From assembly GCA_030754805.1 (NCBI GenBank), contig JASLZO010000001.1, positions 1 through 26,072 on the forward strand: a DNA stretch of 26,072 nt, written 5' to 3'. This document shows, in pieces, positions 1 to 15,823 of this stretch (position 1 is its first letter; each line of letters begins with the position of its first letter). The translations under genes were made by a program, and so were the position numbers. The notes below the pieces were generated by a model. It was not told the DNA's origin. It worked only from the letters and a program-made list of their open reading frames with translations, and did no database searches. The DNA is from Dehalococcoidia bacterium. Lineage in GTDB: Bacteria > Chloroflexota > Dehalococcoidia > UBA6926.

Positions 1-300
1 AATCCGACGCTGAAGAAGTATCTCGACCGCTGGTGGCGGGGCCGGCAGTCGTCGCCGGAAGATCGCTACAAGATCTGCAAGCTCGCCTGGGAGCTGTCCG
101 GCGACGCCTACGGCGCGCGTCAGCAGATGTACGAACGTCTGCACTCCGGTGATCCCGCCGGCATGGTGGCCGGCTCCTATCGGAACTTCGATCTGCAGCC
201 GGGTCTCGAGATGGTGTCGAACTACCTCGGTCTCGAGACGCCGCTGGCGGTCGCGCCTCCGTTGCCCTCTCCCCCCGGAGTGAGTGACGAGACTCGGTAA
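1..300 (+). CDS. C-terminal fragment of a 4-hydroxyphenylacetate 3-hydroxylase (HpaB / group D flavin monooxygenase oxygenase) family protein, 5'-truncated by the window
   Basis: Frame 1 is open from base 1 to TAA at 298-300: NPTLKKYLDRWWRG...EDRYKICKLAWELSGDAYGARQQMYERLHSGDP. This matches the HpaB-family C-terminal pattern R-x-K-x-x-KLAW-x-x-x-G-x-x-F/YG-x-RQ-x-x-YER-x-x-x-GDP. Not in the supplied ORF track. Confidence 0.8.
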   Translation, partial: NPTLKKYLDRWWRGRQSSPEDRYKICKLAWELSGDAYGARQQMYERLHSGDPAGMVAGSYRNFDLQPGLEMVSNYLGLETPLAVAPPLPSPPGVSDETR

Positions 301-330
301 CCCTCGAACGAGTGAGAGTGGAGGAACCAG

Positions 331-1341
331 ATGGCGGAAATCATCTACGGCATGGGCGTCTCCCACAGCCCGCATCTGTCCACGCCGCCCGAGCAGTGGG
401 ATCGCCGGGCCGTTGCTGACAAGCGGAACCCGGCCCACCCGTTCCGGGGCGGTACCTACACGTTCGACGAACTGGTCGAGCTTCGGAAGGGCGAGAACCT
501 CGCGGCCCGGTGCAACCTCGACGTCTACCGAGAGCTCGACGCCAAGAATCAGGCGCGCCTGAAGCAGCTCGCGGACAGGTTCGCCGAGGCCGCGCCGGAC
601 ATCCTGGTCATCATGGGGAACGACCAGCGCGAGGTCTTCCAGCCGAGCCACACCCCAGGATTCCTCGTGTACTACGGCGACACCGTCGTGAACAAGGCGG
701 TCACGGCCGAGGCTATGCAGGGGATGTCGCCGGGAATCGCCGAGTCGATCTGGGGAACCAATCCAGAGACGGACATCACCTATCCGTGCGAGCCGGCGCT
801 CGCCAACCACATCATCTCCACCCTGATCCGCGAGGAATTCGACGTCTCGGCATCGAACGAACTGCCACGCGGGGACGACAACCCACGGAGCATCCCGCAT
901 GCCTTCGGATTCTTGTACCGACGGATCTTGAACGACAGGCCGATCATTACCGTGCCGATCTTTACGAACACGTTCTTTCCGCCGAATCAGCCAACGGCCA
1001 AGCGCGTGCTGGAGTTTGGGAAGGCCGTCGGTCGGGCGATCAAGTCCTGGGACAGCGACCTCAAGGTTGCCGTGTCGGCCACGGGTGGATTCAGCCACTT
1101 CGTGATCGACGAGGAGTTGGATCGCCGGGTCCTCGACGCGCTCGCGAATCGGGACGACGCAGCCATCATCGGCGAGCCGGAGAGCAGCTTCCAGTCCGGA
1201 TCGTCGGAGATCAAGAACTACATCGCGACGGCGGGCGTGCTCGACGGCACCGGCTTGAAGATGGAGCTTCTGGACTACATTCCGTGCTACCGGTCCGAGG
1301 CCGGAACCGGGAACGCCATGGTCTTTATGACGTGGTCGTAG
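331..1341 (+). CDS. Class III extradiol ring-cleavage dioxygenase (LigB family), DesZ / 3-O-methylgallate 3,4-dioxygenase-like
   Basis: GGAGG ribosome-binding site (RBS). Motifs MAEIIYGMGVSHSPHL, MGNDQ, PHAFGFLYRR, NTFFPPNQPT, GGFSHFVIDEE, SEIKN and the C-terminal DYIPCYRSEAGTGNAM closely recall Sphingobium DesZ. The substrate is not established. Confidence 0.85.
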   Translation: MAEIIYGMGVSHSPHLSTPPEQWDRRAVADKRNPAHPFRGGTYTFDELVELRKGENLAARCNLDVYRELDAKNQARLKQLADRFAEAAPDILVIMGNDQREVFQPSHTPGFLVYYGDTVVNKAVTAEAMQGMSPGIAESIWGTNPETDITYPCEPALANHIISTLIREEFDVSASNELPRGDDNPRSIPHAFGFLYRRILNDRPIITVPIFTNTFFPPNQPTAKRVLEFGKAVGRAIKSWDSDLKVAVSATGGFSHFVIDEELDRRVLDALANRDDAAIIGEPESSFQSGSSEIKNYIATAGVLDGTGLKMELLDYIPCYRSEAGTGNAMVFMTWS

Positions 1342-1350
1342 CAGTCTGTC

Positions 1351-1605
1351 GTGAATTCGCGTCGTGCGCCTGGGACGGGAGTGGCGAGCCGGCGCAGGTA
1401 CGGACTCTACGGGGTGCTCGTCGTCCTGTTCCTGGCGCATAACGATCTCTGGTACTGGCGTGACGCCCGCCTCGTGCTCGGACTCCCGGTTGGCCTCCTC
1501 TATCATGTCGTCTACTGCCTCGTTGTGGCGGTCGTGCTGGCGGCCGCCGTCTACCTCGGCGCGCCCGAGCCGGCGACACCCCACCGAGACCACGACGACG
1601 CTTGA
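1351..1605 (+). CDS. DUF3311-type small membrane protein (symporter partner)
   Basis: Two hydrophobic segments joined by HNDLWYW...LVLGLPVGLLYH. Its stop overlaps the symporter ATG (TGATG). An alternative GTG start lies at 1381. Confidence 0.75.
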   Translation: MNSRRAPGTGVASRRRYGLYGVLVVLFLAHNDLWYWRDARLVLGLPVGLLYHVVYCLVVAVVLAAAVYLGAPEPATPHRDHDDA

Positions 1606-3083
1606 TGGTCACCACGATCGTACTCGCCTACTTGCTGGTGGTCCTGGCCATCGGGACCCTCAGTCACCGGCTGTTCCGAGGCACTAGCGAAGATTACTTC
1701 GTCGCCAGCCGCACGATAGGGCCTATCGTTCTCCTGATGACGCTGTTCGGCACGAACATGACCGCCTTCGCGGTCCTGGGGGCGTCGGGCGAGGCCTACC
1801 ACGTCGGGATCGGCGTCTTCAGCCTTGTCGGCTCGGCCGCGGCCTTGATCAATCCCGTGATCTTCCTGTTCGTCGGGACACGGCTGTGGCGGCTGGGCCG
1901 GCGCCACGGGTACCTGACCCAGGTGGGGCTGTTCCGCGACCGATGGGAGTCGCGTAGCCTCGGGCTGCTGCTGTTCGTCGCGCTCGTCGGTCTGATCATC
2001 CCCTACCTGCTGATCGGTGTCATGGGCGCCGGACTGAGCCTCGAGGCGATCACCGACGGGGCGATTCCGCGATGGGCCGGTAGCTTGGTCGTTTGCGCGG
2101 TCGTGCTAGCTTACGTCTGGTCCGGCGGCTTGCGAGGCACGGCCTGGGTCAATACGTTTCAGACGTCGGTCTTCATGAGCCTGGGGATCGTCACGTTCGC
2201 CGTCATCGTGGACAAGCTCGGCGGGTTGACGACCGCGATGGCCTTGGTAGCGGCCACGACCCCTGACCTGCTGATTCGAGGCGACGCCATCACGCCCTGG
2301 CAGTTCCTGACCTACACTTGTATCCCGCTGTCCGTTGGAATGATGCCGCACATGTTCATGCACTGGCTGTCGGCGCGTAGCGCCGAGACGTTCCGCTTGT
2401 CCGTCGTCGCGTTCCCAATTTGCCTTGCGGTCGTCTGGCTACCCAGCGTTCTGCTGGGTGTTCTCGGGCGGATCGATTTTCCCGATCTCGAGGGTACCGC
2501 GGCGAATTCTGTTCTCATCGAGATGGTCGGACACTACGCCCCCGGAGTGCTGGGTGGGTTGCTGGCCGCCGGTGTGTGCGCGGCCATCATGTCGTCACTC
2601 GATTCGCAGTCGTTGTCGCTTGGGACGATGTTCACCGAGGACATCGTTCGGCACTACGCCGCGGGACATCGGTGGAGCGAGCGGCACCAGATTCGCCTCG
2701 GGCGCGCCTTTGTCGGCGTCGTCTTGGCGGTGACGTTCGTCTTGGCGCAGATCCTCGATCAGAGCATCTTCGCGCTCGCGATCTGGTCGTTCTCCGGTCT
2801 CGCGGCGCTGTTTCCACTCGTCGCGGCCGCGCTGTTCTGGAGGCGCAGTACGAGGCAGGGAGCGATCGCCTGCGTCGTCTGCGCCGTGTCCAGCTGGGTA
2901 TACTTCCTCCTGCGGTCGGGGGGCGACCCGGGCTACACCCTCGGGGAGGCAGGCGTGATGCCGGTGGTGGTCATGGTGGCCATCTCGACGGCGGCGCTGA
3001 TTGGGGTCTCACTGATCACGCCTCCCCCCGGGCCACGCGCGATCGAGAAGTTCTTCGGAAGCGTCGGATGTCGTTCCGTGTGA
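1605..3083 (+). CDS. Sodium:solute symporter (SSS) family protein
   Basis: About 13 hydrophobic helices, with SEDYFVASR, GTNMTAFAVLG, GGLRGTAWVN and AAIMSSLDSQ motifs. ATG at 1605 is coupled to the upstream TGA. Confidence 0.9.
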   Translation: MVTTIVLAYLLVVLAIGTLSHRLFRGTSEDYFVASRTIGPIVLLMTLFGTNMTAFAVLGASGEAYHVGIGVFSLVGSAAALINPVIFLFVGTRLWRLGRRHGYLTQVGLFRDRWESRSLGLLLFVALVGLIIPYLLIGVMGAGLSLEAITDGAIPRWAGSLVVCAVVLAYVWSGGLRGTAWVNTFQTSVFMSLGIVTFAVIVDKLGGLTTAMALVAATTPDLLIRGDAITPWQFLTYTCIPLSVGMMPHMFMHWLSARSAETFRLSVVAFPICLAVVWLPSVLLGVLGRIDFPDLEGTAANSVLIEMVGHYAPGVLGGLLAAGVCAAIMSSLDSQSLSLGTMFTEDIVRHYAAGHRWSERHQIRLGRAFVGVVLAVTFVLAQILDQSIFALAIWSFSGLAALFPLVAAALFWRRSTRQGAIACVVCAVSSWVYFLLRSGGDPGYTLGEAGVMPVVVMVAISTAALIGVSLITPPPGPRAIEKFFGSVGCRSV

Positions 3084-3096
3084 GGCGCATCGAGCC

Positions 3097-4401
3097 ATGA
3101 GCATGGTCACGAGTTTTCTGCGGTCCTTCAACACGCACCGGGTCGATCCCTATCCGGTCCATGTCTTGAAGAGAGTGGACCGTCCGACGATCGAGATACG
3201 GGACGCGGAGGTGCCAAGAGTCGACGGTCGGGATAGTGGGTTCAATAAGGCCGCCCGGGGCGAGTACGGGCCGCATCTTCAGCAGCAGAGGGCGCGGCTC
3301 GTCACGAAGCACCCGCTCGGTAGCGCATTGAGAGGAATGCAGGTTCACCTTCGCGACATCGGTGAGACGGACAACCCGGTGGCAGCGAATCAGGCTCCCC
3401 TCGGGGATGATCCGGCGCTGATCACCAAGCACATCAAGGAGACGGCCTATTTCCTGAGGGCCGACATGGTGGGCGTCTGCAAGCTGCCCCCCTACGCGGT
3501 CTTCAGCCGCCATCTCTCGACCGGCGAACCTGTGGAATGCGACCACACCTACGCGATCGCCATCCTGATCGATCAGGATTGGAAGACTTCGGAAGCCAGT
3601 TTCGGCAACGACTGGATCAGCGGTTCGCAGAGCCATCTGGCCTACACCAACTCCAGCTTTGTCGCCCGCATCCTGGCCGACTACATTCGTCAGCTCGGAT
3701 ACCCCGCCAAAGCGCATCACACCTACAGCTACGACGTCGTGGTGCCGCCTATCTTGCTCTGGGCCGGTCTGGGTGAGCTGAGCCGGATCGGGAGTGTCGT
3801 GGTCAACCCGTTCATCGGTCCGCGATTCAAAGCGGCCATCGTGACCACCGACCTCCCGCTGGTACCGGACAAGCCGATTGATTTCGGGCTCCAGGACTTC
3901 TGCTCACGGTGCAAGAAGTGCGCCCGCGAGTGCCCTACCGGGGCGATCAGCGACGGCGACAAGGTCTGGCGCAACGGTTACGAGCAATGGCCGCTCGACG
4001 TGAAAAAGTGTGTCATCGGGCGGACCGCGAGCAATGCGGGTGCGGGCTGCGGCACGTGCATGACGGTGTGCCCATGGAACAAGCCGTACACGCCGTTTCA
4101 TCGATTCGTGCAATGGACGATGAGAAACATCCCTCTCGCCAGAAGGTTCGCGATCTGGGGCGACGATCTCATGGGATACGGGAAGCCAAGAATCGAGAAC
4201 AAGTGGTGGCTCGACCTGGAATCCAGTGACGGTGCCCTCAAGGTACCCGAGCAGGCGGGGAACAGAAGGACCCTCCGCGCCGAATACTCCATGCGCCCGG
4301 AGATGTTGGACGGAGTATTGCCGCCTTTCCTGACCAGAGGGCAACGCGAGTCGGGATCGAACAGAGACGACGCGCACCACAGTCGACCGGACGCGGAGTG
4401 A
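3097..4401 (+). CDS. Reductive dehalogenase family protein 1 (cobalamin, 2x[4Fe-4S]; non-respiratory NpRdhA/BhbA-like core)
   Basis: Motifs YPVHVLKRVDRPT, YAIAILIDQ, DWISGSQSHLAY, AGLGELSRIG, NPFIGPRFK and TTDLPLVPDKPIDFGLQDFC. Fe-S motifs are CSRCKKCARECP (CX2CX2CX3CP) and C-X12-CGTCMTVCP. No twin-arginine leader. Confidence 0.85.
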   Translation: MSMVTSFLRSFNTHRVDPYPVHVLKRVDRPTIEIRDAEVPRVDGRDSGFNKAARGEYGPHLQQQRARLVTKHPLGSALRGMQVHLRDIGETDNPVAANQAPLGDDPALITKHIKETAYFLRADMVGVCKLPPYAVFSRHLSTGEPVECDHTYAIAILIDQDWKTSEASFGNDWISGSQSHLAYTNSSFVARILADYIRQLGYPAKAHHTYSYDVVVPPILLWAGLGELSRIGSVVVNPFIGPRFKAAIVTTDLPLVPDKPIDFGLQDFCSRCKKCARECPTGAISDGDKVWRNGYEQWPLDVKKCVIGRTASNAGAGCGTCMTVCPWNKPYTPFHRFVQWTMRNIPLARRFAIWGDDLMGYGKPRIENKWWLDLESSDGALKVPEQAGNRRTLRAEYSMRPEMLDGVLPPFLTRGQRESGSNRDDAHHSRPDAE

Positions 4402-4408
4402 CCTCGCT

Positions 4409-5608
4409 GTGACGATCCTGACGACCTACAAGCGCGCCTATGACGGGACGAAGCTCGATCCGTATCCCGTCGAGTCCCTCAAGAGGGTCGATCGTCCCAC
4501 GACGTTCATCGATGAGGAGCGAATTCAGCGCGTGGATCAGAGGGCCGGCGGTTTTGCGAGGGCCCGGAGCGGAGGTCTCGGGCCCAGCTATCAGAATCTC
4601 TTGGGGCTCTTCAAGTATCCTCTGTCTCGGGCGCAACAACGGATGGCGGCGACTCTCGCCGACAAGGTCGACGGGCCGGTTGCCGAGCACAGGGCTCCGG
4701 GGACGGATGATCCCGAAGCGATGGCGCGCCACATCAAGGCGACGGCCTATTTCCTCAGAGCCGACGTCGTAGGGATATGCCGACTGCCCCCCTATGCCGT
4801 CTACAGCCACAGCCAGGCGACGGGGGAGCCGATCGAATGCGCGCACAAGTATGCCATCGCCGTTCTGGTCGACCAGGACTGGAAGACCGCTGATGCGAGC
4901 TTCGGCAACGACTGGATCAGCACGTCGATGGGCTTTCTTTCGTATTCCACGACCGCGTTCATCTCATGCATCCTGGCCGATTACATCCGGAAGCTCGGCT
5001 ACCCGGCGCGCGCGCATCACATTCGAAACTATCAGGTGATGCTCCCTCCCATCTTGCTCTGGGCTGGACTCGGCGAAATGTGCCGCACGGGCGACATCGT
5101 GCTCAACCCGTTCCTCGGCACGAGATTCAAGGCGGCCGTGGTCACGACGGATCTCCCGCTCGCGATCGACAGGCCGATCGATTTCGGGCTCCAGGACTTC
5201 TGTTCCAAGTGCGCGAAGTGCGCGACGCACTGTCCAGCAGGAGCGATTCCGTTCGGAGAAGATTCGACGGTCGTGCACAACGGCTACGTCAAGTGGAACA
5301 ACGACGTGGACAGGTGTCTGAAGTATAGGATCGGGAATCAGTGGGGGTCCGGCTGTGGGGTGTGCATACACGTCTGTCCATGGAACAAGCCCTTCACACC
5401 GTTTCATCGCTTTGTGAGGTGGACCATGACCAACATTCCCCTAGCCAGGCGGCTCGCCATCTGGGGAGACGACCTCATGGGGTACGGGACCCCGAATCAG
5501 AAAAACAAGTGGTGGCACGATCTCGAAGCCGTGGATGGCGTCCTGCAAACTCCTGACCGATCCGGCAAGCGGTTTGTGAACAGCCCGACAGACAGGGCTT
5601 CAGACTAG
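4409..5608 (+). CDS. Reductive dehalogenase family protein 2 (paralog of 3097-4401)
   Basis: GTG start with GGAG upstream. The N-terminus aligns without gaps to paralog 1 (DPYP at residues 17-20 in both). Motifs DWISTSMGFLSY, NPFLGTRFK, CSKCAKCATHCP and C-X12-CGVCIHVCP. No Tat leader. Confidence 0.85.
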   Translation: MTILTTYKRAYDGTKLDPYPVESLKRVDRPTTFIDEERIQRVDQRAGGFARARSGGLGPSYQNLLGLFKYPLSRAQQRMAATLADKVDGPVAEHRAPGTDDPEAMARHIKATAYFLRADVVGICRLPPYAVYSHSQATGEPIECAHKYAIAVLVDQDWKTADASFGNDWISTSMGFLSYSTTAFISCILADYIRKLGYPARAHHIRNYQVMLPPILLWAGLGEMCRTGDIVLNPFLGTRFKAAVVTTDLPLAIDRPIDFGLQDFCSKCAKCATHCPAGAIPFGEDSTVVHNGYVKWNNDVDRCLKYRIGNQWGSGCGVCIHVCPWNKPFTPFHRFVRWTMTNIPLARRLAIWGDDLMGYGTPNQKNKWWHDLEAVDGVLQTPDRSGKRFVNSPTDRASD

Positions 5609-5640
5609 ACAGTCCGGCGAAGTGAAAGGAAGGAATCCGA

Positions 5641-7356
5641 ATGAACACCGACACCCTGGAGACCGATGTCTTGGTGATTGGCGCGGGCCTTGCGGGCCTC
5701 CGGGCGGCTATACAGATCCGGCGCTACGGCCTGGACGTGATCATCGCGGAGAAGAGTACCGGCCGGACGAACCTGTCGAGCGTCGCCGGCGGAACACAAG
5801 GCATCGTCATGAATTACTGGTCACTGTCCATGCCTCGAGGCCTCAAGGCGCTCTACGAGCGGGGCGTGAAGGGTGGCGCCTGGGAAATCATGTACGGCAA
5901 GGACCAGCGGATGGAGGAGATCACGGCCGTCGAGCAGATCCCGTACCAGGATGAGCTTGCCGAGTTTGGTGTTCTCAATCCCAGGGACCAAAAGACCTAC
6001 GGCCCGCCGGGGCGGGTGAGCTGGGCCACCACCGGTCCGATGTACAAGTACGCTCAGGACCAGGGCGCCAAGCTGATGAAGTACTTCAACATCACCGACA
6101 TCCTCACCGTGGACGGTCAGTGCGTCGGCGCGGTCGGTTTCGACGTCGTGTCTGGAGACTTCACCGTGGTCAAGGCCAAGGCTGTCGTCATGGCCACGGG
6201 CGGCGCGGGCGAGTGCTGGAAGCGAAACAACACGCCGACACGATCGACTGGAGATGGTCACGCCATCGCCTATCGCAACGGCGTGGAAATGAACATGATG
6301 GAGTACGAGAGCTTCGACGCCTGGATCATCTCCGAGAAGGATCAGCCTCAGTTCTGGATTCCTCCGTCGTATGCACGAACCATGGTCAATCTGACCAACG
6401 CGAACGGAGAGGACTTCCTGCCGAATTACATGGTGCTTGGCGACGGTGCCACCCTGAAACCTGGCGACCCTTTCCACATCAAGTACGGAACGCCGGTCAT
6501 TGACAACGTGGCGACGATCGCGCGCGCGATGGCCAACGAGGTTCTCGAGGGACGGGGTGATGATGGCGGGGTGCTCGCCGACTTCTCCCACGTCCCCGAG
6601 GACGCGTGGACCGCCGAGCCCAAGGGGATCGCCGGCCTCCATGCGATGCGAAACTTCGAGTGGGAGAAGAAGCCGATCCGGATGTATCCAGGAGCACTTG
6701 GATCGTGGGGGGGGATCAAGATCTCCGAAGAGTGCGAGACCAACATTCCCGGATTGTTCGCCGGCGGGGAAGTGTCCTACGGTGAGGATCTCAAGTACAC
6801 CCTGGTTTTCGGTGTCAGGGCCGGGAGGGCCGGCGCCGAGTACGCCAGAAGTGTGTCCCGTGTCGAACTGAGCCAGAGTCAGGTGAAAGACAAGAAGGAC
6901 TACCTCGACAGGTTTTCGTCTAGGTCGAAGACGGCTGACGGGAATCCGAGAGCGATCCGTGAGGCGATCCAGAAGCTGAGTATGGACAAGTTTGGCGTAC
7001 TGAAGACCGAGAAGGGGCTTCTCGAGGGCCTGGAGCAGTTGGACGACATTCGGAGGACTGCGCAGGAGAGGATGTATGCCGAGGACCCGCGGGAGCTGAG
7101 ACTGGCATTTGAATCTGACTGCATGATCGATTGTCAGGAGATGCATGCGAAGGCGGCCCTGATGCGGACCGAGACGCGGGGCGTTCACAACCGGCTGGAC
7201 CACCCCTACATGGACAACGATCGCTGGATACAGGACATCAGACTGGAAAAGAAGAACGGTCAGATGGAGTTGCGGACTGTTCCGACCCGCTCGGGCTATG
7301 TGAAGGTCCCCGAGGGCAGATTCCCGATCAGAGGCCTGAAGCAAGAGACTGCGTGA
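5641..7356 (+). CDS. FAD-binding oxidoreductase, SdhA/FrdA/AprA/NadB flavoprotein superfamily, with a non-canonical active site
   Basis: VLVIGAGLAG dinucleotide fold, KAVVMATGG, STGDGHAIAYRNG, GGIKISEECETNIPGLFAGGE, and the C-terminal ALMRTETRGVHNRLDHP helical-domain motif. AAGGA RBS. Confidence 0.85.
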   Translation: MNTDTLETDVLVIGAGLAGLRAAIQIRRYGLDVIIAEKSTGRTNLSSVAGGTQGIVMNYWSLSMPRGLKALYERGVKGGAWEIMYGKDQRMEEITAVEQIPYQDELAEFGVLNPRDQKTYGPPGRVSWATTGPMYKYAQDQGAKLMKYFNITDILTVDGQCVGAVGFDVVSGDFTVVKAKAVVMATGGAGECWKRNNTPTRSTGDGHAIAYRNGVEMNMMEYESFDAWIISEKDQPQFWIPPSYARTMVNLTNANGEDFLPNYMVLGDGATLKPGDPFHIKYGTPVIDNVATIARAMANEVLEGRGDDGGVLADFSHVPEDAWTAEPKGIAGLHAMRNFEWEKKPIRMYPGALGSWGGIKISEECETNIPGLFAGGEVSYGEDLKYTLVFGVRAGRAGAEYARSVSRVELSQSQVKDKKDYLDRFSSRSKTADGNPRAIREAIQKLSMDKFGVLKTEKGLLEGLEQLDDIRRTAQERMYAEDPRELRLAFESDCMIDCQEMHAKAALMRTETRGVHNRLDHPYMDNDRWIQDIRLEKKNGQMELRTVPTRSGYVKVPEGRFPIRGLKQETA

Positions 7357-7378
7357 CCTTCCCAGGAGAACTTGAGAG

Positions 7379-7720
7379 ATGCTGGAAGAAAAAGTCGATG
7401 CCGTCGTCAATCACAAGAAATGCCTTGGAAGAAACTGTCTCCACTGCGTGGACAGCTGCCCGGTGGAGGCGATCGACTGGGATCCGATCGAAGAGCAGGT
7501 GTCGTCGGCCAACATCCAGGAATGCATCGTCTGTCTCGCATGCGAGGAGGCCTGTGCCGAAGACGCCAATGGGTGTCTCACGATGGTGGGCGTCATCCGA
7601 AAGGAATTCACCGCGTCGCCCATACAGGACATGTGGGCGGGAACGGGGGACGTGATCCCGCCCAAGGCCGATCTGCCCGGGGGACGATCAGATACCCGCA
7701 CGTCGAAGTTGGGTTTCTAG
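7379..7720 (+). CDS. 2x[4Fe-4S] ferredoxin with a C-terminal tail (AprB-like partner of the flavoprotein)
   Basis: CLGRNCLHCVDSCP and CIVCLACEEAC motifs, followed by an extension of about 45 aa. AGGAG RBS. Confidence 0.85.
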   Translation: MLEEKVDAVVNHKKCLGRNCLHCVDSCPVEAIDWDPIEEQVSSANIQECIVCLACEEACAEDANGCLTMVGVIRKEFTASPIQDMWAGTGDVIPPKADLPGGRSDTRTSKLGF

Positions 7721-8503
7721 TTGAGAAAACGGCGAGACGCTCTGTACCCGTTGGCAGCGGCCATCGGGCTCGTCGCGGTGTGGCAGCTGGGTGTCCAGTT
7801 ATTGGCGATCCCGGACTACCTGCTGCCTGGGCCGCGCGCCGTCGCTGCGACGGTGGTGTCGGAGCGGACGCTGATATTCCAGCATGGCCTGATCACACTC
7901 TACGAAGCCGGTCTCGGTTTCACGCTTGCCCTCGTGTTCGCCGTGCCGATCTCCGCGATCATCGTCTGGTCGAAGGTTGCCGAGAAGACCGTGCTGCCCC
8001 TGATGGTCTTCCTGCAGACGGTCCCCAAGGTGGCTATTGCGCCGCTCTTCATCATCTGGTTCGGATTCGGTCCGTTCCCGAAGGTCCTGATCAGCTTCTT
8101 GCTGGCCTATTTCCCCATCGTGATCGAGATGGTCACCGGGTTGAGAGATGTGAACCCCACCGTCCTGGACCTGGCGAGATCCATGTCCATCACTCCCTTC
8201 CAGACGTTCACGAAGATACGGATCCCAAATTCACTCCCGTATCTGTTCAGCGGGCTGAAGTTGGGCGCGCTGCTCTCGCTGGTCGGAGCCATCGTGGCAG
8301 AGTTCATGGGGTCGATGGACGGTCTGGGGTACCTCGTCCTCTATGCGAACGACCGGATGGATACGACGCTGTGCTTTGCCGTGCTCGTCGTGCTCCTACT
8401 CCTGGGCAAGGCGCTGTTCTCCGTCGTGGAATGGGTCGAGCGGTACGCGATTGCATGGCATGTCGTCGTTCGGGAGAACGAGCAGATCATGTTCACCACG
8501 TAG
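7721..8503 (+). CDS. ABC transporter permease 1, NitT/TauT (SsuC/TauC) family
   Basis: Motifs PDYLLPGP, PKVAIAPLFIIWFGFG, the EAA-like LDLARSM...KIRIPNSLPYLFSG loop, and GAIVAEF...GLG. The TTG start directly follows the ferredoxin stop. Confidence 0.9.
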   Translation: MRKRRDALYPLAAAIGLVAVWQLGVQLLAIPDYLLPGPRAVAATVVSERTLIFQHGLITLYEAGLGFTLALVFAVPISAIIVWSKVAEKTVLPLMVFLQTVPKVAIAPLFIIWFGFGPFPKVLISFLLAYFPIVIEMVTGLRDVNPTVLDLARSMSITPFQTFTKIRIPNSLPYLFSGLKLGALLSLVGAIVAEFMGSMDGLGYLVLYANDRMDTTLCFAVLVVLLLLGKALFSVVEWVERYAIAWHVVVRENEQIMFTT

Positions 8504-8535
8504 GGGTACAGCTCAGGATGAGGAGTTCGGGGGAG

Positions 8536-9345
8536 ATGGCTCTGGGTAAGGGATTCCGTTGGAGCGCCAGGCTCCCGGAAGCGCTGTATCCCGCCTCCAC
8601 GATCGCTGCGATGCTCGCTGCGTGGCAGCTGTCGATCGTCCTCTTTTCCATACCGGACTTCATCCTGCCTGGTCCGATCGCCGTCATCGAAAGTTTCGTG
8701 GGAAATCTCGGCCTGGTCTGGCCTCATTTCCTGGTCACGACGTTTGAGATGCTTCTGGGGCTTTTTCTCGCCACCGTCTTCGCGGTCGCCGTCTCGATAC
8801 TCATGGTCTGGTCGAGGCCGGTGGAGAAGACACTGCTGCCGCTCCTGGTGTTCTTTCAGACGACACCCAAGCTGGCCGTTGCTCCATTGTTCATCGTCTG
8901 GTTCGGCTTCGGCTACGCTCCCAAGGTCATCATCGCCTTCTGGCTGGCGTACTTCCCGATCGTCATCGCCACGATGACCGGATTGAAGGATGTTGAGCCC
9001 GCACTGATCGATCTGACGAAATCCATGTCGGCGTCCACGCTCCAGACGTTCATCAAGGTCCGACTGCCAAGTTCATTGCCTCACTTCTTCGCCGGTCTCA
9101 AGCTGGGCGGCGTGGTCGCCATTCTTGGAGCCATCGTCGGTGAGTTCGTCGGTGCGAATGAGGGGTTGGGCTACCTGATCACGATGGCGCAACACAACAG
9201 CGACGTGACGTTGCTGTTCTCGGTCGTCATCACGCTCGTGGTCTTGGGCAGGTCGATGTATGCGCTCATCGGCTGGGCCGAAACACACGCCATCTCCTGG
9301 CACGTCACGATGAGGGCGAGGGACCAGAGGTTCTTCACGGCGTGA
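8536..9345 (+). CDS. ABC transporter permease 2, NitT/TauT family
   Basis: The real gene is the 3' part of track ORF 7372-9345, starting at ATG 8536 after GGGGAG. Motifs PDFILPGP, PKLAVAPLFIVWFGFG, KVRLPSSLPHFFAG and GAIVGEFVGANEGLG. Confidence 0.9.
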   Translation: MALGKGFRWSARLPEALYPASTIAAMLAAWQLSIVLFSIPDFILPGPIAVIESFVGNLGLVWPHFLVTTFEMLLGLFLATVFAVAVSILMVWSRPVEKTLLPLLVFFQTTPKLAVAPLFIVWFGFGYAPKVIIAFWLAYFPIVIATMTGLKDVEPALIDLTKSMSASTLQTFIKVRLPSSLPHFFAGLKLGGVVAILGAIVGEFVGANEGLGYLITMAQHNSDVTLLFSVVITLVVLGRSMYALIGWAETHAISWHVTMRARDQRFFTA

Positions 9346-9409
9346 CTCGCAGGGCCAAGGCATCGCCCGACTGGAGGGAGAGGCCCACCGCGCAGAAGAG
9401 GGGGGACGC

Positions 9410-10405
9410 ATGAGAACAAGCTCCCTGATGGTCGGAATGTTGGGCCTGTCTCTCGTGGCTCTGGGAACGGCCTGCCGATCTCGTCAAGCATCCTCCACGG
9501 ATGCACCGGCGCTGGACCAGGTGACGCTGCAGCTCCACTGGAAGTGCTCGGGCCCGCATGTGCCGTTCATCGTTGCGTCGGAGAAGGGATTCTTCGAGGA
9601 GGAAGGCATAGACATCACGATCAGGGAAGGCTCGGGTTCATCGGCGACGAGCAAACTCGTCGCCGCCGGTAGCGCCACGTTCGGAGTGGCCGCGACCAAC
9701 GTCAGCGTGAAGGGAGCCGCCCTGGGGATGCCGATCATTCAAGTGATGCAGATTCAGGAGTCGCGGAGGTACTGCATCCTCTCGAAGCCCGAGACCGGCA
9801 TCAGAACGCCTCAGGATCTGATCGGGAAGGTCATTGCCGGGTCTGGAGGCGGTGGGACCTCAGCCCTCTTCAACGCGTTTCTGGCCGCAAACGAGATTCG
9901 TCAAGAGCAGGTCACGTACCTGAACGCCGGCAGGGCGATGCTCGAGGCGATGGCAACGGGCAGGGCCGATGGCGCGCTTGGCCTTGAAGTGGATGACCTC
10001 GTCAGGCTCCAGGGGATGGACGTCGATCCGGCCCAGGTCATGCTGTTCGAGGATTGGGGGATCCCCGTGATCGGGGACGGGGTGATCGTCAACGCGACGA
10101 CCGCGCGGGAGGATCCCGATCTCATCCGGAGGTTCATCAGGGCGTACATCGCGGGAGTCGGAGAGACCTTCGCCGACGTCGACGCGGCGGCGGAGATCGC
10201 GGTGAGGCGGTTTCCCCTGGCGAGGAAGGAAATTCTCGTCGGCCAGTTGACGAGTGTCCGCTCGCTCTTACCGTCTCCACTGGGATACCAGGATCCCGAG
10301 GCCTTGGAAGAGCTCAGGCGCATCACGGTGGAGTTCGACGGTGTCGCCGAAGCGGCAGACATTCCGTTGACCCGGTTCTCCACGAACGAGTTTCTGCCCG
10401 AGTAG
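9410..10405 (+). CDS. ABC transporter substrate-binding protein, NMT1/THI5/SsuA-like
   Basis: N-terminal signal peptide with a possible lipobox (LGTAC), and LQLHW...HVPFIVASEKGFFEEEGIDITIREGSGS. The THI5 catalytic Lys/His motif is not evident. Confidence 0.85.
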   Translation: MRTSSLMVGMLGLSLVALGTACRSRQASSTDAPALDQVTLQLHWKCSGPHVPFIVASEKGFFEEEGIDITIREGSGSSATSKLVAAGSATFGVAATNVSVKGAALGMPIIQVMQIQESRRYCILSKPETGIRTPQDLIGKVIAGSGGGGTSALFNAFLAANEIRQEQVTYLNAGRAMLEAMATGRADGALGLEVDDLVRLQGMDVDPAQVMLFEDWGIPVIGDGVIVNATTAREDPDLIRRFIRAYIAGVGETFADVDAAAEIAVRRFPLARKEILVGQLTSVRSLLPSPLGYQDPEALEELRRITVEFDGVAEAADIPLTRFSTNEFLPE

Positions 10406-10452
10406 CGATTCCATCAGAATTCTCGCTTCCCAGGGCTTGGACGAGGAGAGAC

Positions 10453-11214
10453 GTGATTACTCTCGACGGCGTGCACTTGACGTATCCGCACAAGGGCGGG
10501 TCGATCGAGGCATTGACGGATGTCAGCTTCTCGGCGAGGGAGGGGGAGTTCCTCTCCATTGTCGGCCCGAGCGGCTGCGGGAAATCCACCCTGATCAAGA
10601 TCATCGCCGGTCTCCTTCCGACGTCCAAGGGAGAGGCGCGCGTCGATGGGAAGCTGGTCCGGGGCCCACACCCGAATGTCGGGATCGTCTTTCAGGAGGC
10701 GACCCTACTGGCATGGCGCTCCGTCTTGCGGAACATCATGCTGCAGATCGAGGTGCGACAGGAGTTCGAGAACGACGCCTACGTACCGAGGGCGCGGGAC
10801 CTGATCAAGCTGGCGGGGTTGGATGGGTTCGAGGACCGGTACCCGTGGGAGCTCTCAGGCGGCATGCAGCAGCGCGTCTCCTTCTGTCGGGCACTCATCC
10901 ACGACCCTCCGCTCCTGCTCATGGATGAACCGTTCGGCGCGCTGGATGCCATGACGCGGGATGAAATGGGCGTCTGGCTTCAGAAGACGTGGATGGAACG
11001 AGCGCGAACGGTTCTGTTCGTCACGCACGATATCGGTGAAGCGGTCTTTCTCTCGGATCGAGTCATGGTGATGACAGCCAGGCCCGGGCGCGTGAAGGAG
11101 ATCATGGAGATCGACTTGCCCAGGCCCAGAGAACTCAGAATCACGGAAGAGATCGAGTTCGTGAAGTATGTCTCCCATGCACGACGCCTCATGCACGCGG
11201 AGGGATACTACTGA
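10453..11214 (+). CDS. ABC transporter ATP-binding protein, NitT/TauT family
   Basis: GTG start after GAGGAG, inside track ORF 10054-11214. Walker A GPSGCGKST, signature LSGGMQQR, Walker B LLMDEPFGALD, H-loop VTHD. Confidence 0.93.
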   Translation: MITLDGVHLTYPHKGGSIEALTDVSFSAREGEFLSIVGPSGCGKSTLIKIIAGLLPTSKGEARVDGKLVRGPHPNVGIVFQEATLLAWRSVLRNIMLQIEVRQEFENDAYVPRARDLIKLAGLDGFEDRYPWELSGGMQQRVSFCRALIHDPPLLLMDEPFGALDAMTRDEMGVWLQKTWMERARTVLFVTHDIGEAVFLSDRVMVMTARPGRVKEIMEIDLPRPRELRITEEIEFVKYVSHARRLMHAEGYY

Positions 11215-11269: not shown

Positions 11270-13255
11270 TCACACGTTTCGCGTGCGGCTGTCGGCAAGA
11301 CTGAATTGACTGTGCCAGGTGGATTCGGCTCCCGCGTCGATGCAGCGGATTCTGGCGTCGATCACGTACGGCCGACCCTCCCGGGTGGCGGCGATGCCGA
11401 TCTCCAGCTCGCTCTCCAGTTCGTCGGCCGTCGTCGCCTTCGCAGCGGAGATCCCCTGAGATTCGGCAAGCTTGACGAAATCGATCTCCGGATCGCCAAG
11501 AAACATCGTCGGGTAGCGATCGGTCTGCGCCATGTTGCCCTGATACCGCGCGAAGCGAAACCGCACCTGCTGATAGTTGACGTTGTTCCAGATGACGGTG
11601 AGTACGGGGACCCGATAGCGTGCCATCGTCCAGAAACCGGCCGCGCTGTACATCACGGAGCCGTCGCCGATGTGAAGCACGACCTGGCGATCGGGCTGGC
11701 CGAGCTTGGCGCCGATGGCCGCCCCGACTCCCCACCCGAGCGAGCCGCCGGCCGCGTGAAGCCGCATCTTCTCACCGACGCCGACAGATTGGAGTGGCGC
11801 GTAGGGACGGGCCATGTCGTGGCTGACGTTCTCGTGAATCGTGATGGCGTCGCGATCCGACGCGCGCTCGGTGAGCAGCGCGACGTCATCGGGATGCATC
11901 GGATTCTGACCCAGATTCGGGCGAATATCCGCGTCCGCGGCACGGCGCATCCTCTCCGGGAGCGCCGCCAGTCGGTCGTAGCGGCTGGCGCGGATCGCGG
12001 CGAGACGCTCCGTCGTGGCCAGGCTGCGAATCGACTCGAGGAGATCGTCGAGCGCCAGTCCGACATCGGCGACGATGGCCAGATCGACAGGCTCCGTTCG
12101 GGCCATCGAACCGGTATCGATTCCGATCGCCACCTTCTTGGCATCGGCGGGGATCGAGGGAGGATAGTTTCCCGGACCCCAGACTCCCCGCTCCGAAATC
12201 GTTGGGCTGGTCGAGATTGTCCGGACCGCGAAGTTCTCGGCACCCAGCGCAAGGAACATGTCCGCGGTCTTGAACGGATTCTCCTCTTCGATGAAGCGCA
12301 TGCCCCCGTAGCTGTAGTAGAGCGGGTGCTGTGTCGGGAAATGCGCGCCAATGTTGTACCAGCCGAGGAAATCCGAGACTGGCATGGCGAGCAGGTCCGC
12401 CAGCTCCATCGCTTGCGGAACCGCGCCCGATCGGTTCAGCTCGCTCTCCACGATGAGGCACGGTTGCACGCTCTCCAAGAGCCACCGCGCGGTCTGTTCG
12501 ATATCTGCGGCGTTGGGACGAGACCGGATCGGAACGGAGAACTTGCTCTGGTCGATGATCTCCGCCGAGACGTCCTTGGCTTCCAGCGCCGCGGTCCCGA
12601 GGGCCACGTAGACCGGACCTCCGGGAGGCGTCGCGGCGACCTTGAACGCTCGCCGCATGGCCAGCGGAATGCTCTCCGGATTGCGGACCTCCCAGGAGAG
12701 CTTGGAGAACTGCTTGTTGACGTCGACCTGCTCGAAGCCGGGCCGTGGCGCAAGCACGAGATCGTCGCTGAAGACCGTGGTGTCCACGAGAGCAGCGGTG
12801 ACCACCATGGAGGCATGATCGCGGTGGGCGTTGAAGAGCTGGCCCGATGCCTGGGCGGTCCCGGCGATTGCGTGAAGATTGACGAAGGCCGTCTCGCCGG
12901 TCACCTGGTTGTAGCCGTCGGCCATGGCAATGACGAGGCCTTCGTGCAACCCCACGATCGGCTGAATCTCCGGAGCGCCGGCCAAGGCGTCGAAGAAGCC
13001 AACTTCCGTGGAGCCAGGATTCGTGAAGACATACTTCACGTTCGCGGCCTTGAGTTGCTCCACGAGGAGTTCTCCGCCCGTTCCGGTCGCGGTGCGATAG
13101 GTGCCGCTTGGTTGGTCGGCCGGCGTCTCCGCCGCCGCGAGATTACTCAGGAGAGACTCGACGAAGCCGGCCGTGAAGCCGGCCGCCACCATCCGCCTGA
13201 AGAAGCCACGACGGGAGAGGCGATTGTTCAGGTATTCAGCCAGGAGCTCACGCAT
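11270..13255 (-). CDS. Thiamine-diphosphate-dependent enzyme, benzoylformate-decarboxylase-like, with an N-terminal twin-arginine (Tat) signal
   Basis: ATG at 13255 with a GGAGGG RBS (the longer track start at 13483 overlaps the opposite gene). Signal MRELLAEYLNNRLSRRGFFRRMVAAG...LAAA. Motifs FTNPGSTE, GLHEG (cofactor-activating Glu), NLHAIAG, and the ThDP motif GDGSVMY...VIWNN. Confidence 0.88.
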   Translation of the reverse strand: MRELLAEYLNNRLSRRGFFRRMVAAGFTAGFVESLLSNLAAAETPADQPSGTYRTATGTGGELLVEQLKAANVKYVFTNPGSTEVGFFDALAGAPEIQPIVGLHEGLVIAMADGYNQVTGETAFVNLHAIAGTAQASGQLFNAHRDHASMVVTAALVDTTVFSDDLVLAPRPGFEQVDVNKQFSKLSWEVRNPESIPLAMRRAFKVAATPPGGPVYVALGTAALEAKDVSAEIIDQSKFSVPIRSRPNAADIEQTARWLLESVQPCLIVESELNRSGAVPQAMELADLLAMPVSDFLGWYNIGAHFPTQHPLYYSYGGMRFIEEENPFKTADMFLALGAENFAVRTISTSPTISERGVWGPGNYPPSIPADAKKVAIGIDTGSMARTEPVDLAIVADVGLALDDLLESIRSLATTERLAAIRASRYDRLAALPERMRRAADADIRPNLGQNPMHPDDVALLTERASDRDAITIHENVSHDMARPYAPLQSVGVGEKMRLHAAGGSLGWGVGAAIGAKLGQPDRQVVLHIGDGSVMYSAAGFWTMARYRVPVLTVIWNNVNYQQVRFRFARYQGNMAQTDRYPTMFLGDPEIDFVKLAESQGISAAKATTADELESELEIGIAATREGRPYVIDARIRCIDAGAESTWHSQFSLADSRTRNV

Positions 13256-13283
13256 TGACACCCTCCGAGCGCAGACAGGACGC

Positions 13284-13303
13284 CCTCGAGGATGATCTCG
13301 AGG
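13284..13303. promoter_or_regulatory. 7-6-7 inverted repeat, possible operator
   Basis: CCTCGAG-gatgat-CTCGAGG, just downstream of the candidate minus-strand -10 box in the divergent intergenic region. Confidence 0.25.
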
Positions 13304-13310
13304 TGCTGCG

Positions 13311-13339
13311 TTCGTACCTGCAATCACGGTTTCTGTCAA
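13311..13339 (-). promoter_or_regulatory. Candidate sigma70-type promoter for the ThDP enzyme gene
   Basis: On the minus strand: a perfect TTGACA (13339-13334), a 17-nt spacer, then TACGAA (13316-13311; 3/6 match to TATAAT), about 55 nt upstream of the start codon. Confidence 0.35.
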
Positions 13340-13457
13340 GGGAGGACTTCGCGCCGCGTGACGCCGAGGGTGAACCGACGGCGGCGCCCGACGGCCCCGT
13401 GGAGTTATGCTTTGCACGGCGGAGGCATGAGGGCCGTCGCGTGGGTGAAGGTATCTG

Positions 13458-15821
13458 ATGAACGACGACAGATTCGAGGTCATCGGTCGGGTGACCCGGC
13501 GTCAGGACGGCCACGCCATGGTCACCGGGCGGCAGCTGTACTCCTCGGACATCAGCCTTCCGAACATGCTTCAGGCCAGAGTCTTGAGAAGTCCCTACCC
13601 TCACGCGCGGATCGCCGCTATCGACACCAGCGAAGCGGAACGCCTGGGCGCCGTCTGCATCACCCCCGAGGACGTGCCGCGGGTCAAGTACAACGAGCGT
13701 CAGGTGAGCGTTCCGGCCAAGACCTACCGCGACCGAACGGTCCTGCCGGACAAGGTCCGGCACGTCGGGCAGGGCGTCGTTGCGGTCGCCGCCAGGACGG
13801 AAGCGCTGGCGGACAGGGCGCTCGACGCCCTTGACGTCGAATTCGAATCGCTGCCTGCGGTCTTCGATCCCCACGAAGCGATGCGAGATGGCGCGCCGCA
13901 GTTGCATGACGCGGTCCTGTTGGGCGAGACCGTCCTCCCCATCGAGCGGAATATCGCCTGTTACCGGGAGGCGGTAGAAGGCGACGTGGCTCGAGGGCTC
14001 GAGGAGGCGGACCTCGTCGTGGAGAACGAATTCACGACCGGGAGGGCCTACCACGGCCAGCTGGAGAGCAAGGCGGTTGTGTGCCGCCCGGAAGCCGACG
14101 GCGGAATCACGGTGTGGGCCACCGCGCAGTCGATTCACAATACCCGCCAGCTCTTGGGAAGCCTCTTCGACATCCCCCTCAGCAAGATCAACGTGCAACG
14201 TGTGCCGATTGGTGGGTCGTTTGGCTCGAGCATCCAGATGAACAGTTCCGTCGCCGTCTGCGTCGCCCTGGCGCTCAAGGCTCAGAAGTCGGTGAAGCTG
14301 GTGCTGACCCGCGAAGAGGATATGTACGACCACTGCAAGTATCCGTCGAATATCCACCTCACCTACGGCGTGAAACGCGACGGAACCCTGACAGCGGGAT
14401 ATTTGAAGACGGTCGTCGACATTGGAGGGCACAACATCCAGGCGTATCCGCTGCTCGGGTGCATGGCGGGCTGGTTCGTCTCTCTGTACCGACTGCCGCA
14501 TCTGAAGTTCGAGGGTACGGCGGTGTACACCAACAAGGCTCCAGCCTGTGCCATGCAGGGATACGGGAACCCGCAGGTCACATTCGCGGTGGAGTCGATG
14601 ATGGACACCATCGCCGAAGAACTCGACATCGATCCGATCGACGTTCGCCTGAAGAACTACGTGGGGCTCGGCGAGACGTTCTGGGGGCAGGGTCCGACTG
14701 TGCGCTCGGTCATTCGGAGTTGCGGTGTGGAGGAGATGCTGCTGAAGGGAAAGGCGATGGTCGGCTGGGAGGGTCGCGGGAGCTCCACGAGCAAGACCGG
14801 GCGCTTCCGAAGGGGGATCGGGGTCGGCCGAGGGTTCCACACATCGGGCACCGGTGCGCCCACGCCGGGTGAGGTCATCGACTACTCCACGGCGATGGTC
14901 AAGATTAACGAGGACGGGTCGGTCGACTGCCTGACCGCGCTCATGTGCCACGGCGGGGGAACGTTGGACGCGGGCGCCAAGATGGTGGCCGAGGAACTCG
15001 GTGTGCCTCTCGACCGGGTGGGAATCTCGCCGTCGAACACCCGCTCCACCGGCTACGACGTCTGCACCCACGCGACCCGTGGGGTGTACTGCGGCGGCGC
15101 GAGCCTTCTGAGGGCCGCCCAAGATGTAAAGAAGATTCTGTTCGACTTCGCCTCGCGCATCATCGACGTCAATCCGGACGCGCTGAAGGTCCGACCCGAC
15201 ACGAACCGTGGCCAGGGCGTCGTCTGCTTGCCCGGAGCGCCGGCCAAACGGATCACCGTGGCCGAGGTGGCCAAGACCGCGCAGATCAAGGGATGGGGCT
15301 CGATCATCGCCGTCGTGAGCCATCGGCAGGTGAACTGTCCGCCCTGCTTCGTCGTGAATTTCGTCGAGGTAGAGGTCGACACGGCGACCGGGCAGATTCG
15401 ACCGATGCGCGCCGTGGCCGCAGTCGATGCCGGGACGGTCATCAACCCCGACCTAGCCGCCGGGCAGCTCGAGGGCGGCCTCTGCCGGGGCATCGGCCTC
15501 GCGCTTCTGGAAGATACGACTTACAAGCCGGATACCGGAGAGCTTACCTGTGGCGGGTATCTCACCGACTACAAGGTCTATACGGCACAGGACATGCCCT
15601 CGCTCGAGGATCTGTCGACGTTCTTTGCCGACACCTACGAGCCGTCAGGTCCGTTCGGCGCCAAGGGCGTCGGCGAAGCCGCGAACAATGCGACCGCCGG
15701 CGCCGTAGCCAATGCCATCTACAACGCCGTGGGGATCCGCTTGACGGAGGCGCCGATCACTCCGGAACGCGTCTTGAGTGCGTTGACGCGGGACGCGGAA
15801 CAGCTCCAGCAGGGGCGGTAA
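13458..15821 (+). CDS. Xanthine dehydrogenase family molybdopterin-binding (large) subunit 1
   Basis: Motifs LRSPYPHARI, TAQSIH, GGSFGSS, AMQGYGNPQ, DAGTVINP...GQLEGG and GAKGVGE (catalytic Glu present). Confidence 0.92.
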   Translation: MNDDRFEVIGRVTRRQDGHAMVTGRQLYSSDISLPNMLQARVLRSPYPHARIAAIDTSEAERLGAVCITPEDVPRVKYNERQVSVPAKTYRDRTVLPDKVRHVGQGVVAVAARTEALADRALDALDVEFESLPAVFDPHEAMRDGAPQLHDAVLLGETVLPIERNIACYREAVEGDVARGLEEADLVVENEFTTGRAYHGQLESKAVVCRPEADGGITVWATAQSIHNTRQLLGSLFDIPLSKINVQRVPIGGSFGSSIQMNSSVAVCVALALKAQKSVKLVLTREEDMYDHCKYPSNIHLTYGVKRDGTLTAGYLKTVVDIGGHNIQAYPLLGCMAGWFVSLYRLPHLKFEGTAVYTNKAPACAMQGYGNPQVTFAVESMMDTIAEELDIDPIDVRLKNYVGLGETFWGQGPTVRSVIRSCGVEEMLLKGKAMVGWEGRGSSTSKTGRFRRGIGVGRGFHTSGTGAPTPGEVIDYSTAMVKINEDGSVDCLTALMCHGGGTLDAGAKMVAEELGVPLDRVGISPSNTRSTGYDVCTHATRGVYCGGASLLRAAQDVKKILFDFASRIIDVNPDALKVRPDTNRGQGVVCLPGAPAKRITVAEVAKTAQIKGWGSIIAVVSHRQVNCPPCFVVNFVEVEVDTATGQIRPMRAVAAVDAGTVINPDLAAGQLEGGLCRGIGLALLEDTTYKPDTGELTCGGYLTDYKVYTAQDMPSLEDLSTFFADTYEPSGPFGAKGVGEAANNATAGAVANAIYNAVGIRLTEAPITPERVLSALTRDAEQLQQGR

Positions 15822-15823
15822 CG

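Follow-up and report, generated by a model that had tools for sequence, protein, structure and literature searches.

A tandem reductive dehalogenase cluster with a recurrent AprAB-like flavoprotein–ferredoxin partner in a Dehalococcoidia genome

We describe a gene cluster that encodes two homologues of reductive dehalogenases (RdhA1 and RdhA2), a flavoprotein of the SdhA/FrdA/AprA fold, a small ferredoxin and an ATP-binding cassette (ABC) importer. It lies in a 26,072-nt stretch of DNA, hereafter the window, from a Dehalococcoidia bacterium (assembly GCA_030754805.1, contig JASLZO010000001.1). The window has a G+C content of 63%; genes were taken from a listing of open reading frames (ORFs) and their translations, and families were assigned by Pfam and NCBIfam scans. 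An earlier note, made from the letters of this DNA, had described eight same-strand genes with gaps of 0–64 nt and no obvious internal promoter. The ORF listing gives the same span, 3097–11214, with intergenic gaps of 7, 32, 22, 0, 32 (or 14), 64 and 47 nt, and a consensus scan detects no sigma-70-like promoter on the plus strand within the cluster, which is weak evidence at this G+C content. Scans for promoters and terminators returned nothing exceeding the shuffled background. As for the extent of the module, its end at 11214 stands, a convergent gene closing the co-directional run there (Table 1). Its proposed start at RdhA1 does not: the gene of an SSS-family symporter ends just 13 nt before RdhA1, so the operon unit probably begins further upstream, and the LigB gene and the HpaB 3′ end precede it on the same strand. 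The symporter is probably the uptake step of the unit.

The dehalogenases and the layout of the cluster

Both RdhAs pass the cut-off of the reductive-dehalogenase hidden Markov model TIGR02486 (160.35 bits; scores in Table 1), which bears out their identity, and reach just 33–39 bits with the QueG model, the cut-off of which is 200. The best solved relative of both is NpRdhA (4RAS, 6ZXU), RdhA1 matching 4RAS with an E value of 8.3e-119. Residues 17–395 of RdhA1 align to residues 259–638 of the 4RAS chain, that is, to the cobalamin/Fe-S catalytic domain alone, and for this reason we regard RdhA1 and RdhA2 as a single-core form; in the alignment to 4RAS neither possesses the N-terminal duplicated (cofactor-less) cobalamin domain of NpRdhA. 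The N-terminal part of NpRdhA does give a second, weak match to the same region of RdhA1, because NpRdhA is internally duplicated. The substrate triad of NpRdhA (Y426, K488 and R552) corresponds to Y183, K245 and R309 of RdhA1, both in the printed alignment and in an alignment of 13 sequences, and is kept in RdhA2 and in all relatives of at least 58% identity. The Fe-S cysteines C269, C272, C275, C279, C305, C318, C321 and C325 (RdhA1 numbering) are invariant among the 13 sequences, and corrinoid binding by both proteins is predicted, since they are homologous to NpRdhA in its cobalamin-binding domain.

Neither RdhA had been credited with a Tat (twin-arginine translocation) leader, a neighbouring RdhB or a fused reductase, and N-termini, ORF space and domain scans all agree. 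Neither N-terminus shows an RR motif with a hydrophobic stretch behind it, homology to the NpRdhA core beginning at residue 17; there is no unassigned ORF space for an rdhB anchor gene within 1602–11214; and no Fer2, FAD or NAD domain matches occur at the C-termini, both proteins ending 35–70 residues past the last Fe-S motif. The assignment of RdhA1 and RdhA2 as genuine cytoplasmic dehalogenases of the NpRdhA type, in a minimal form, is thus well supported by their sequences.

With NpRdhA from Nitratireductor pacificus pht-3B they share a cytoplasmic location, the absence of a Tat leader and of RdhB, homology over the whole length of the catalytic domain and the conserved triad. They differ in starting at chain residue ~259, without the ~250-aa N-terminal duplicated domain, and in the arrangement of two tandem paralogues with transporter genes in the operon; moreover, the neighbour of NpRdhA is a ferredoxin oxidoreductase (PMC10463259, going by its description only), whereas the neighbour here is an SdhA/AprA-fold flavoprotein with an Fe-S subunit. 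BhbA from Comamonas sp. 7D-2 and JtRdhA from Jhaorihella thermophila have the same type of catalytic domain and dehalogenate halophenolic acids ahead of ring hydroxylation and cleavage, but RdhA1 and RdhA2 lack their C-terminal PDOR-like FMN/NAD/[2Fe-2S] domain and hence any access to NAD(P)H via a fused module. The characterised catabolic RdhAs all act on ortho-halogenated phenols, JtRdhA accepting 3-bromo-4-hydroxyphenylacetate, and the triad residues of NpRdhA bind and protonate the ortho-halophenol (PMC10463259). This ortho-halophenol specificity fits the HpaB/LigB context of the present cluster.

The single-core RdhA as such is far from rare. More than 4000 metagenomic clusters match the ~395-aa core at E ≤ 1e-30, many at 60–78% identity, most of them from Deltaproteobacteria and from metagenome-assembled genomes (MAGs) of Desulfatiglandales, and the databases already name them reductive dehalogenases. 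The new element is the kind of flavoprotein beside the stand-alone RdhA cores, not the cores themselves. The nearest sequence relatives, at 60–78% identity, are the Tat-less RdhA homologues of marine Desulfatiglans, Deltaproteobacteria and cold-seep MAGs; the present case differs from them in that the host genome also encodes the oxygen-dependent HpaB and LigB, and in having an identifiable, specific flavoprotein–ferredoxin partner with documented synteny.

Table 1 Genes in and around the cluster (positions in nt of the window)
Feature	Position	Strand	Supporting match or remark
HpaB-family monooxygenase, 3′ end	1–300	+	HpaB_N and HpaB matches on upstream continuation L105:18695-19948
LigB-type extradiol dioxygenase	331–1341	+	PF02900, 53.5 bits
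SSS-family solute symporter	1602–3083	+	PF00474, 124.6 bits; TIGR00813
RdhA1, 434 aa	3097–4401	+	TIGR02486, 199.6 bits; ~35-aa C-terminal extension
RdhA2, 399 aa, paralogue 58% identical to RdhA1	4409–5608	+	TIGR02486, 201.7 bits
Flavoprotein, 571 aa, SdhA/FrdA/AprA fold	5641–7356	+	PF00890 and PF02910
Ferredoxin subunit, 113 aa	7379–7720	+	Fer4_10, Fer4_7 and Fer4_9 matches
ABC permease 1 (SsuC/TauC/SaoP-like)	7721–8503	+	PF00528, 91.6 bits; best NCBIfam matches under cut-off
ABC permease 2	8536–9345 (alternative ATG at 8518)	+	PF00528, 94.9 bits
NMT1/THI5 (SsuA/TauA/ThiY-type) substrate-binding lipoprotein	9410–10405	+	PF09084, 147.2 bits; TIGR01728, 66.8 bits, below the 163.5 cut-off
ABC ATPase (TauB/SaoA/NtrCD-like)	10453–11214	+	PF00005, 105.7 bits; NF008421, 214.7 bits, under cut-off
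Thiamine diphosphate (ThDP)-dependent enzyme	11270–13483	−	TPP_enzyme_N/M/C; convergent

The flavoprotein–ferredoxin pair and its linkage to RdhA genes

The flavoprotein scores far under the cut-off of every NCBIfam equivalog, the best being TfrA with 206 bits against 718; the aprA model NF005331 reaches 97.1 bits, its cut-off being 557, and the 25 best NCBIfam matches listed do not include TIGR02061. In printed alignments to chains of the 1NEK and 1KF6 type, the histidine that carries covalent FAD in Escherichia coli SdhA (H45) and FrdA (H44) is replaced by asparagine and the catalytic H242 of SdhA by aspartate, while R286, H354 and R399 of SdhA, which serve dicarboxylate binding and the proton shuttle, align to a gap, to Leu/Gly and to a gap, respectively. 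On this basis the FAD is predicted to be bound non-covalently and the dicarboxylate site to be absent. An AlphaFold (AF2) model built from 28 homologues (pLDDT 91.2) resembles FrdA (TM score 0.82), the alpha subunit of PAPS reductase (0.75) and AprA (0.73).

The ferredoxin carries two [4Fe-4S] motifs (CX4CX2CX3CP and CX2CX2CX3C) followed by a tail of ~50 aa, and a small ferredoxin gene comes after every flavoprotein homologue inspected, down to 35% identity. Searched against solved structures the ferredoxin returns generic PsaC-type matches, with AprB absent among the 60 best matches listed. The predicted complex of the two proteins has an ipSAE of 0.63, compared to 0.01 for the best control; among solved complexes 51 of 78 attain the former mark, among mismatched pairs 2 of 108. 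It is from the complex model alone that binding of flavoprotein and ferredoxin is predicted.

The two proteins probably constitute an AprAB-like two-subunit enzyme, and it is well supported that this is not a fumarate, succinate or aspartate enzyme. AprAB and the archaeal alpha–beta PAPS reductase (1JNR, 8A8O) likewise combine an SdhA-fold flavoprotein with non-covalent FAD and a small, tailed subunit with two [4Fe-4S] clusters, the binding of which is predicted here; the differences are the far lower aprA-model score and the lack of sulfate-activation genes nearby. To SdhA, FrdA, TfrA and NadB the flavoprotein is related by its FAD_binding_2 and Succ_DH_flav_C domains, with FrdA as the best structural match, but the histidine for covalent FAD and all dicarboxylate and proton-shuttle residues of that group are replaced, the partner is a plain ferredoxin instead of an SdhB- or TfrB-type subunit, and there is no membrane anchor. 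Candidate reactions could be an AprA-style reductive removal of a sulfur substituent or the oxidation of an amine (e.g. halotyramine).

The flavoprotein clade comprises ~18 clusters of at least 68% identity followed by groups at ~43% and 35–41%. Among whole genomes it occurs in 2 of 41 relatives (in the genus of the window only), in 1 of 401 Acidobacteriota and in none of 401 genomes of the phylum of genome G425; this patchy distribution suggests horizontal acquisition.

An association of rdhA genes with this flavoprotein, initially seen in the window alone, recurs in other genomes. In 9 of 16 settings of flavoprotein–ferredoxin pairs, settings that are partly non-independent, an RdhA gene stands no more than 7 kb away, as against none of 80 control loci (1.28 Mb, many from Dehalococcoidia MAGs); the controls are generic SdhA-family proteins of at most 30% identity that were returned by a scan of the genome collection with generic FAD motifs. 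The order RdhA1–RdhA2–flavoprotein(–ferredoxin) is kept in L093/L094, in L095 and in a 7-kb ENA contig (ERZ23486238, with an RdhA1 of 76% identity). RdhA2 orthologues of 77–79% identity lie directly 5′ of the flavoprotein gene in L093 and L095. At L093/L094, where the identities are 79% for the RdhA, 88% for the flavoprotein and 79% for the ferredoxin, a TRAP system follows and there is no ABC importer. Within the clade of 43% identity the order is flavoprotein–ferredoxin–MFS–RdhA–RdhA (L110/L111), and at L001 and L089 a TIGR02486-positive RdhA is situated 4.5–4.7 kb from the pair. That this type of enzyme is functionally connected with RdhAs is well supported. The pair had been proposed to be either an electron supply or a step in a shared pathway: its linkage to RdhA lies far above chance, and the analysis does not separate the two roles.

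The linkage is not universal. Many of the nearest flavoproteins (77–90% identity) have an upstream GntR or IclR regulator instead of an RdhA (L089–L092, L097, L099–L101, L103), and at such loci the genes downstream encode, in order, a ferredoxin, two permeases, an NMT1 binding protein, an ATPase and a second flavoprotein–ferredoxin pair; in the clade of 35% identity the NMT1 importer and the second pair are kept and RdhA is missing.

Two further observations concern the RdhA genes at these loci. Upstream of the GntR gene of L097 (566–838) lies a 91-codon remnant, 67% identical to residues 85–157 of RdhA1, that resembles a decayed RdhA. At L108 (positions 2–1557, minus strand) and on the ERZ23486238 contig, a TIGR02486-positive RdhA (418 aa) is accompanied by a 92-aa gene annotated as VcrB, an RdhB-like anchor; this RdhA is divergent from RdhA1–RdhA2–flavoprotein and is possibly a membrane-associated RdhA beside the cytoplasmic module.

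The ABC importer of the window consists of an NMT1 binding-protein domain, two PF00528 permeases and a PF00005 ATPase, and none of the substrate-specific NCBIfam equivalogs SsuA, TauA and SaoX reaches its cut-off. Copies of permease 1 with 66–80% identity follow the ferredoxin in L089, L091, L097, L099 and L104. The importer had been taken to be dedicated to the RdhAs. This view has to be given up: the importer follows the pair without an adjacent RdhA in L091, L097, L099 and L112 and is missing from L093, where RdhA1–RdhA2–flavoprotein–ferredoxin is kept. Its primary association is with the flavoprotein pair.

Genomic surroundings and expression

The window is part of contig C40 in a 3.3-Mb assembly (G000) that is 99% complete and contains eight RdhA-like loci. 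Proteins encoded nearby are identical to entries named from marine MAGs of Vicinamibacterales (Acidobacteriota). CobS, which acts in nucleotide-loop assembly, was not found in the genome, which does encode a PduO-type cob(I)alamin adenosyltransferase (C20:4234-4731), and it therefore probably depends on imported corrinoid.

A second operon lies 14 kb upstream of the window (G000:C40:226300-231560; L105:3303-8561, minus strand). It encodes, in order, a 672-aa SdhA/AprA-like flavoprotein, a tailed ferredoxin with two [4Fe-4S] clusters (ORF 6191–6601), RdhA3 (418 aa, TIGR02486 227.8 bits) and an SSS symporter. The flavoprotein is non-orthologous to that of the window (23% identity), and the two SSS symporters share 21% identity. 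RdhA3 and its relatives have an arginine at the position of Lys488 in NpRdhA; the Arg552 position aligns to a gap, and the presence of that arginine is uncertain. A third pair, a 35% paralogue, is found on contig C36 of G000, followed by a DAO-family oxidoreductase. In a sister genome the third pair is located ~5 kb from two tandem RdhAs (L121, G001:C38:170000-189000), which are those of contig C17, and contigs C17 and C36 of G000 are probably adjacent. Taking together the window, the RdhA3 operon and the C36 paralogue in the sister genome, all three flavoprotein–ferredoxin pairs of the genus are near RdhA genes. Flavoprotein-3 was not found beside the RdhAs of sister genera in five genomes, and a 52% homologue of it in an archaeal-looking context (L120) is without RdhA. 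A 433-aa Fe-S protein beside a 64% flavoprotein-3 homologue in Chloroflexi (L116) was considered as an RdhA and rejected because it is not RdhA-like. Among the other RdhA paralogues of the genome, the one on C4 adjoins a TonB-dependent receptor.

Just upstream of the window, on the other strand, the same island encodes a PaaK-like CoA ligase, an IorA-like enzyme, a second 2-oxoacid:ferredoxin oxidoreductase and a TAXI-TRAP transporter. Downstream of the cluster, the ThDP-dependent enzyme has a long N-terminal extension in which SRRGFF and a hydrophobic stretch resemble a Tat signal. In L001, too, the flavoprotein pair has a ThDP enzyme as a neighbour, there a cytoplasmic one. The region 13458–24466 encodes two different sets of XDH-family molybdenum hydroxylases, an AroM-family protein and two amidohydrolases, with another SSS gene downstream, which suggests N-heterocycle catabolism in the same island. 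At L004, where the flavoprotein is 38% identical, a lone MoCoBD large subunit comes directly after the flavoprotein–ferredoxin pair.

Contigs identical to the window occur in four metatranscriptome runs (hydrothermal vent, marine) and together, at low depth, cover most of the cluster. The junction of flavoprotein and ferredoxin is crossed by single contigs (7237–7528 and 7195–7483), as is that of ferredoxin and permease 1 (7519–7903), and one contig extends from RdhA2 across the spacer and 17 nt into the flavoprotein gene. The stretch of the LigB-type dioxygenase (455–1362) has the highest contig depth in all four runs, up to 26–31 in X3, several-fold above that of the RdhAs.

Electron supply and competing explanations

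We tentatively favour an acquired, soluble and non-respiratory dehalogenation operon in which the flavoprotein–ferredoxin pair supplies electrons to the RdhAs. RdhA1 and RdhA2 would strip halogens ortho to the phenolic hydroxyl from imported halophenolic acids, putatively of the hydroxyphenylacetate or hydroxybenzoate type. The dehalogenated products would pass to the HpaB hydroxylase and the LigB dioxygenase encoded just upstream, which are the likely agents of downstream ring hydroxylation and cleavage; among the flanking genes, those for HpaB, LigB, the PaaK-like ligase and the IorA-like enzymes count in favour of this proposal. In the direction of electron flow proposed here, the flavoprotein would oxidise a small molecule, for which the substrate of the NMT1-type ABC importer is the simplest choice, and the Fe-S clusters of the RdhAs would receive the two electrons from the ferredoxin subunit through a putative contact with it. 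A role in electron supply would explain both the minimal operons, consisting of transporter, RdhA, flavoprotein and ferredoxin only, and the presence of three distant lineages of the pair near RdhAs.

A number of points weigh against electron supply by the pair. The closest relatives of the pair often sit behind a GntR gene without an RdhA, which implies an RdhA-independent job: there is no RdhA across 17 kb of L091 nor on the contig of L112. Conversely, close RdhA relatives such as P0136 have no flavoprotein beside them, and the RdhA paralogues on C4 and C5 are flanked by transporters alone. The ferredoxin-reducing enzymes POR, IOR and AFOR recur near the pairs and could feed the RdhAs directly. 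An NAD(P)H domain is not known from SdhA-family flavoproteins, no second dinucleotide motif is seen in the flavoprotein sequence, and the potentials of its FAD and of the clusters may be too high for the Co(II)/Co(I) couple. Since AprAB-like complexes are already among the solved structures, the score of the complex model, possibly reflecting model memory, indicates likeness and is not proof. The metatranscriptome contigs are consistent with an expressed operon and, being assembled and of low depth, are proof neither of transcription nor of a common transcript.

Quite possibly, though we hold it with some doubt, the pair is instead a substrate-specific dehydrogenase or a ferredoxin-fed reductase whose target is the imported compound or else one of the side chains or substituents of the halogenated aromatic; pair and RdhAs would then share substrates and not electrons, and the RdhAs would draw on the general pool of ferredoxin reduced by the POR, IOR or AFOR enzymes nearby. 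In AprAB and PAPS reductase the Fe-S subunit carries electrons in to the FAD, a direction that speaks for such a role. The self-contained order GntR–flavoprotein–ferredoxin–ABC–flavoprotein2–ferredoxin2 without RdhA (L091, L097, L099, L112/L113) is better explained by it, and it gains further from RdhA paralogues without a flavoprotein in the same genome and from the ferredoxin-reducing 2-oxoacid or aldehyde oxidoreductases that recur beside the pairs. It leaves unexplained, however, why three mutually distant lineages of the pair (23–43% identity) should stand beside RdhAs, some of them in minimal operons, and the reaction cannot be named because none of the substrate-binding residues of known family members is kept, which we count against it.

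It is improbable that the target of the RdhAs and the pair is a substituent other than halogen, taken off or reduced in a QueG-like manner on an imported aromatic or heterocyclic compound. QueG, a member of the same superfamily as RdhA, reduces an epoxide. The superfamily thus includes non-dehalogenases, with QueG matches of 33–39 bits here, most metagenomic RdhA homologues have never been assayed, and the island is rich in genes for N-heterocycles (two XDH-family sets, amidohydrolases and AroM); against this, both proteins pass the dehalogenase cut-off and are far off that of QueG, the NpRdhA domain match has an E value of 8e-119 and all three triad residues are kept. A fortuitous joining of two mobile cassettes, the RdhA pair and the flavoprotein–ferredoxin–ABC unit, in a variable island without functional coupling is similarly improbable: both cassettes do occur separately and the clade is mobile and patchy (not found in 39 of 40 relatives, 400 sampled Acidobacteriota and 401 genomes of a second phylum), but the linkage extends over at least four different gene orders and includes components that are not orthologous, compared to 0 of 80 control loci, and the spacing is tight (7–32 nt).

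Several elements of the picture are already known, namely the idea of cytoplasmic catabolic RdhAs served by separate redox proteins, a pathway in which dehalogenation precedes ring hydroxylation and cleavage, and the abundance of Tat-less RdhA homologues. The function and electron supply of the cytoplasmic homologues have been left open (PMC6129605; PMC12219181); in the case of NpRdhA, the neighbouring reductase and ferredoxins failed in reconstitution (PMC10463259), and for another class of RdhA, GntR and ‘FAD-dependent oxidoreductase’ neighbours have been described (PMC12219181). No publication that connects RdhA with a flavoprotein of the AprA or SdhA type came to light. What is new, and in no paper that we found, is the recurrent pairing of RdhA with an AprAB-like heterodimer and the family of this heterodimer as a distinct, uncharacterised group.

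Tat-less cytoplasmic RdhA homologues are among the commonest dehalogenase-like genes of marine sediments, seeps and the water column, and the recurrent flavoprotein–ferredoxin partner provides a concrete, clonable candidate for the source of their electrons; at the same time, the pairing offers an initial clue to the function of AprAB-like heterodimers, a widespread family. For the use of oxygen-tolerant RdhAs in debrominating pollutants, too, a natural soluble redox partner would be of value. It is more doubtful whether AprAB-like heterodimers are the physiological electron input of the abundant Tat-less marine RdhAs at large, independent of NAD(P)H or a respiratory chain. If true, an imported organic compound would be oxidised by the flavoprotein and its two electrons would enter the RdhA directly from the Fe-S subunit, which would make organohalide reduction soluble and coupled to a substrate.

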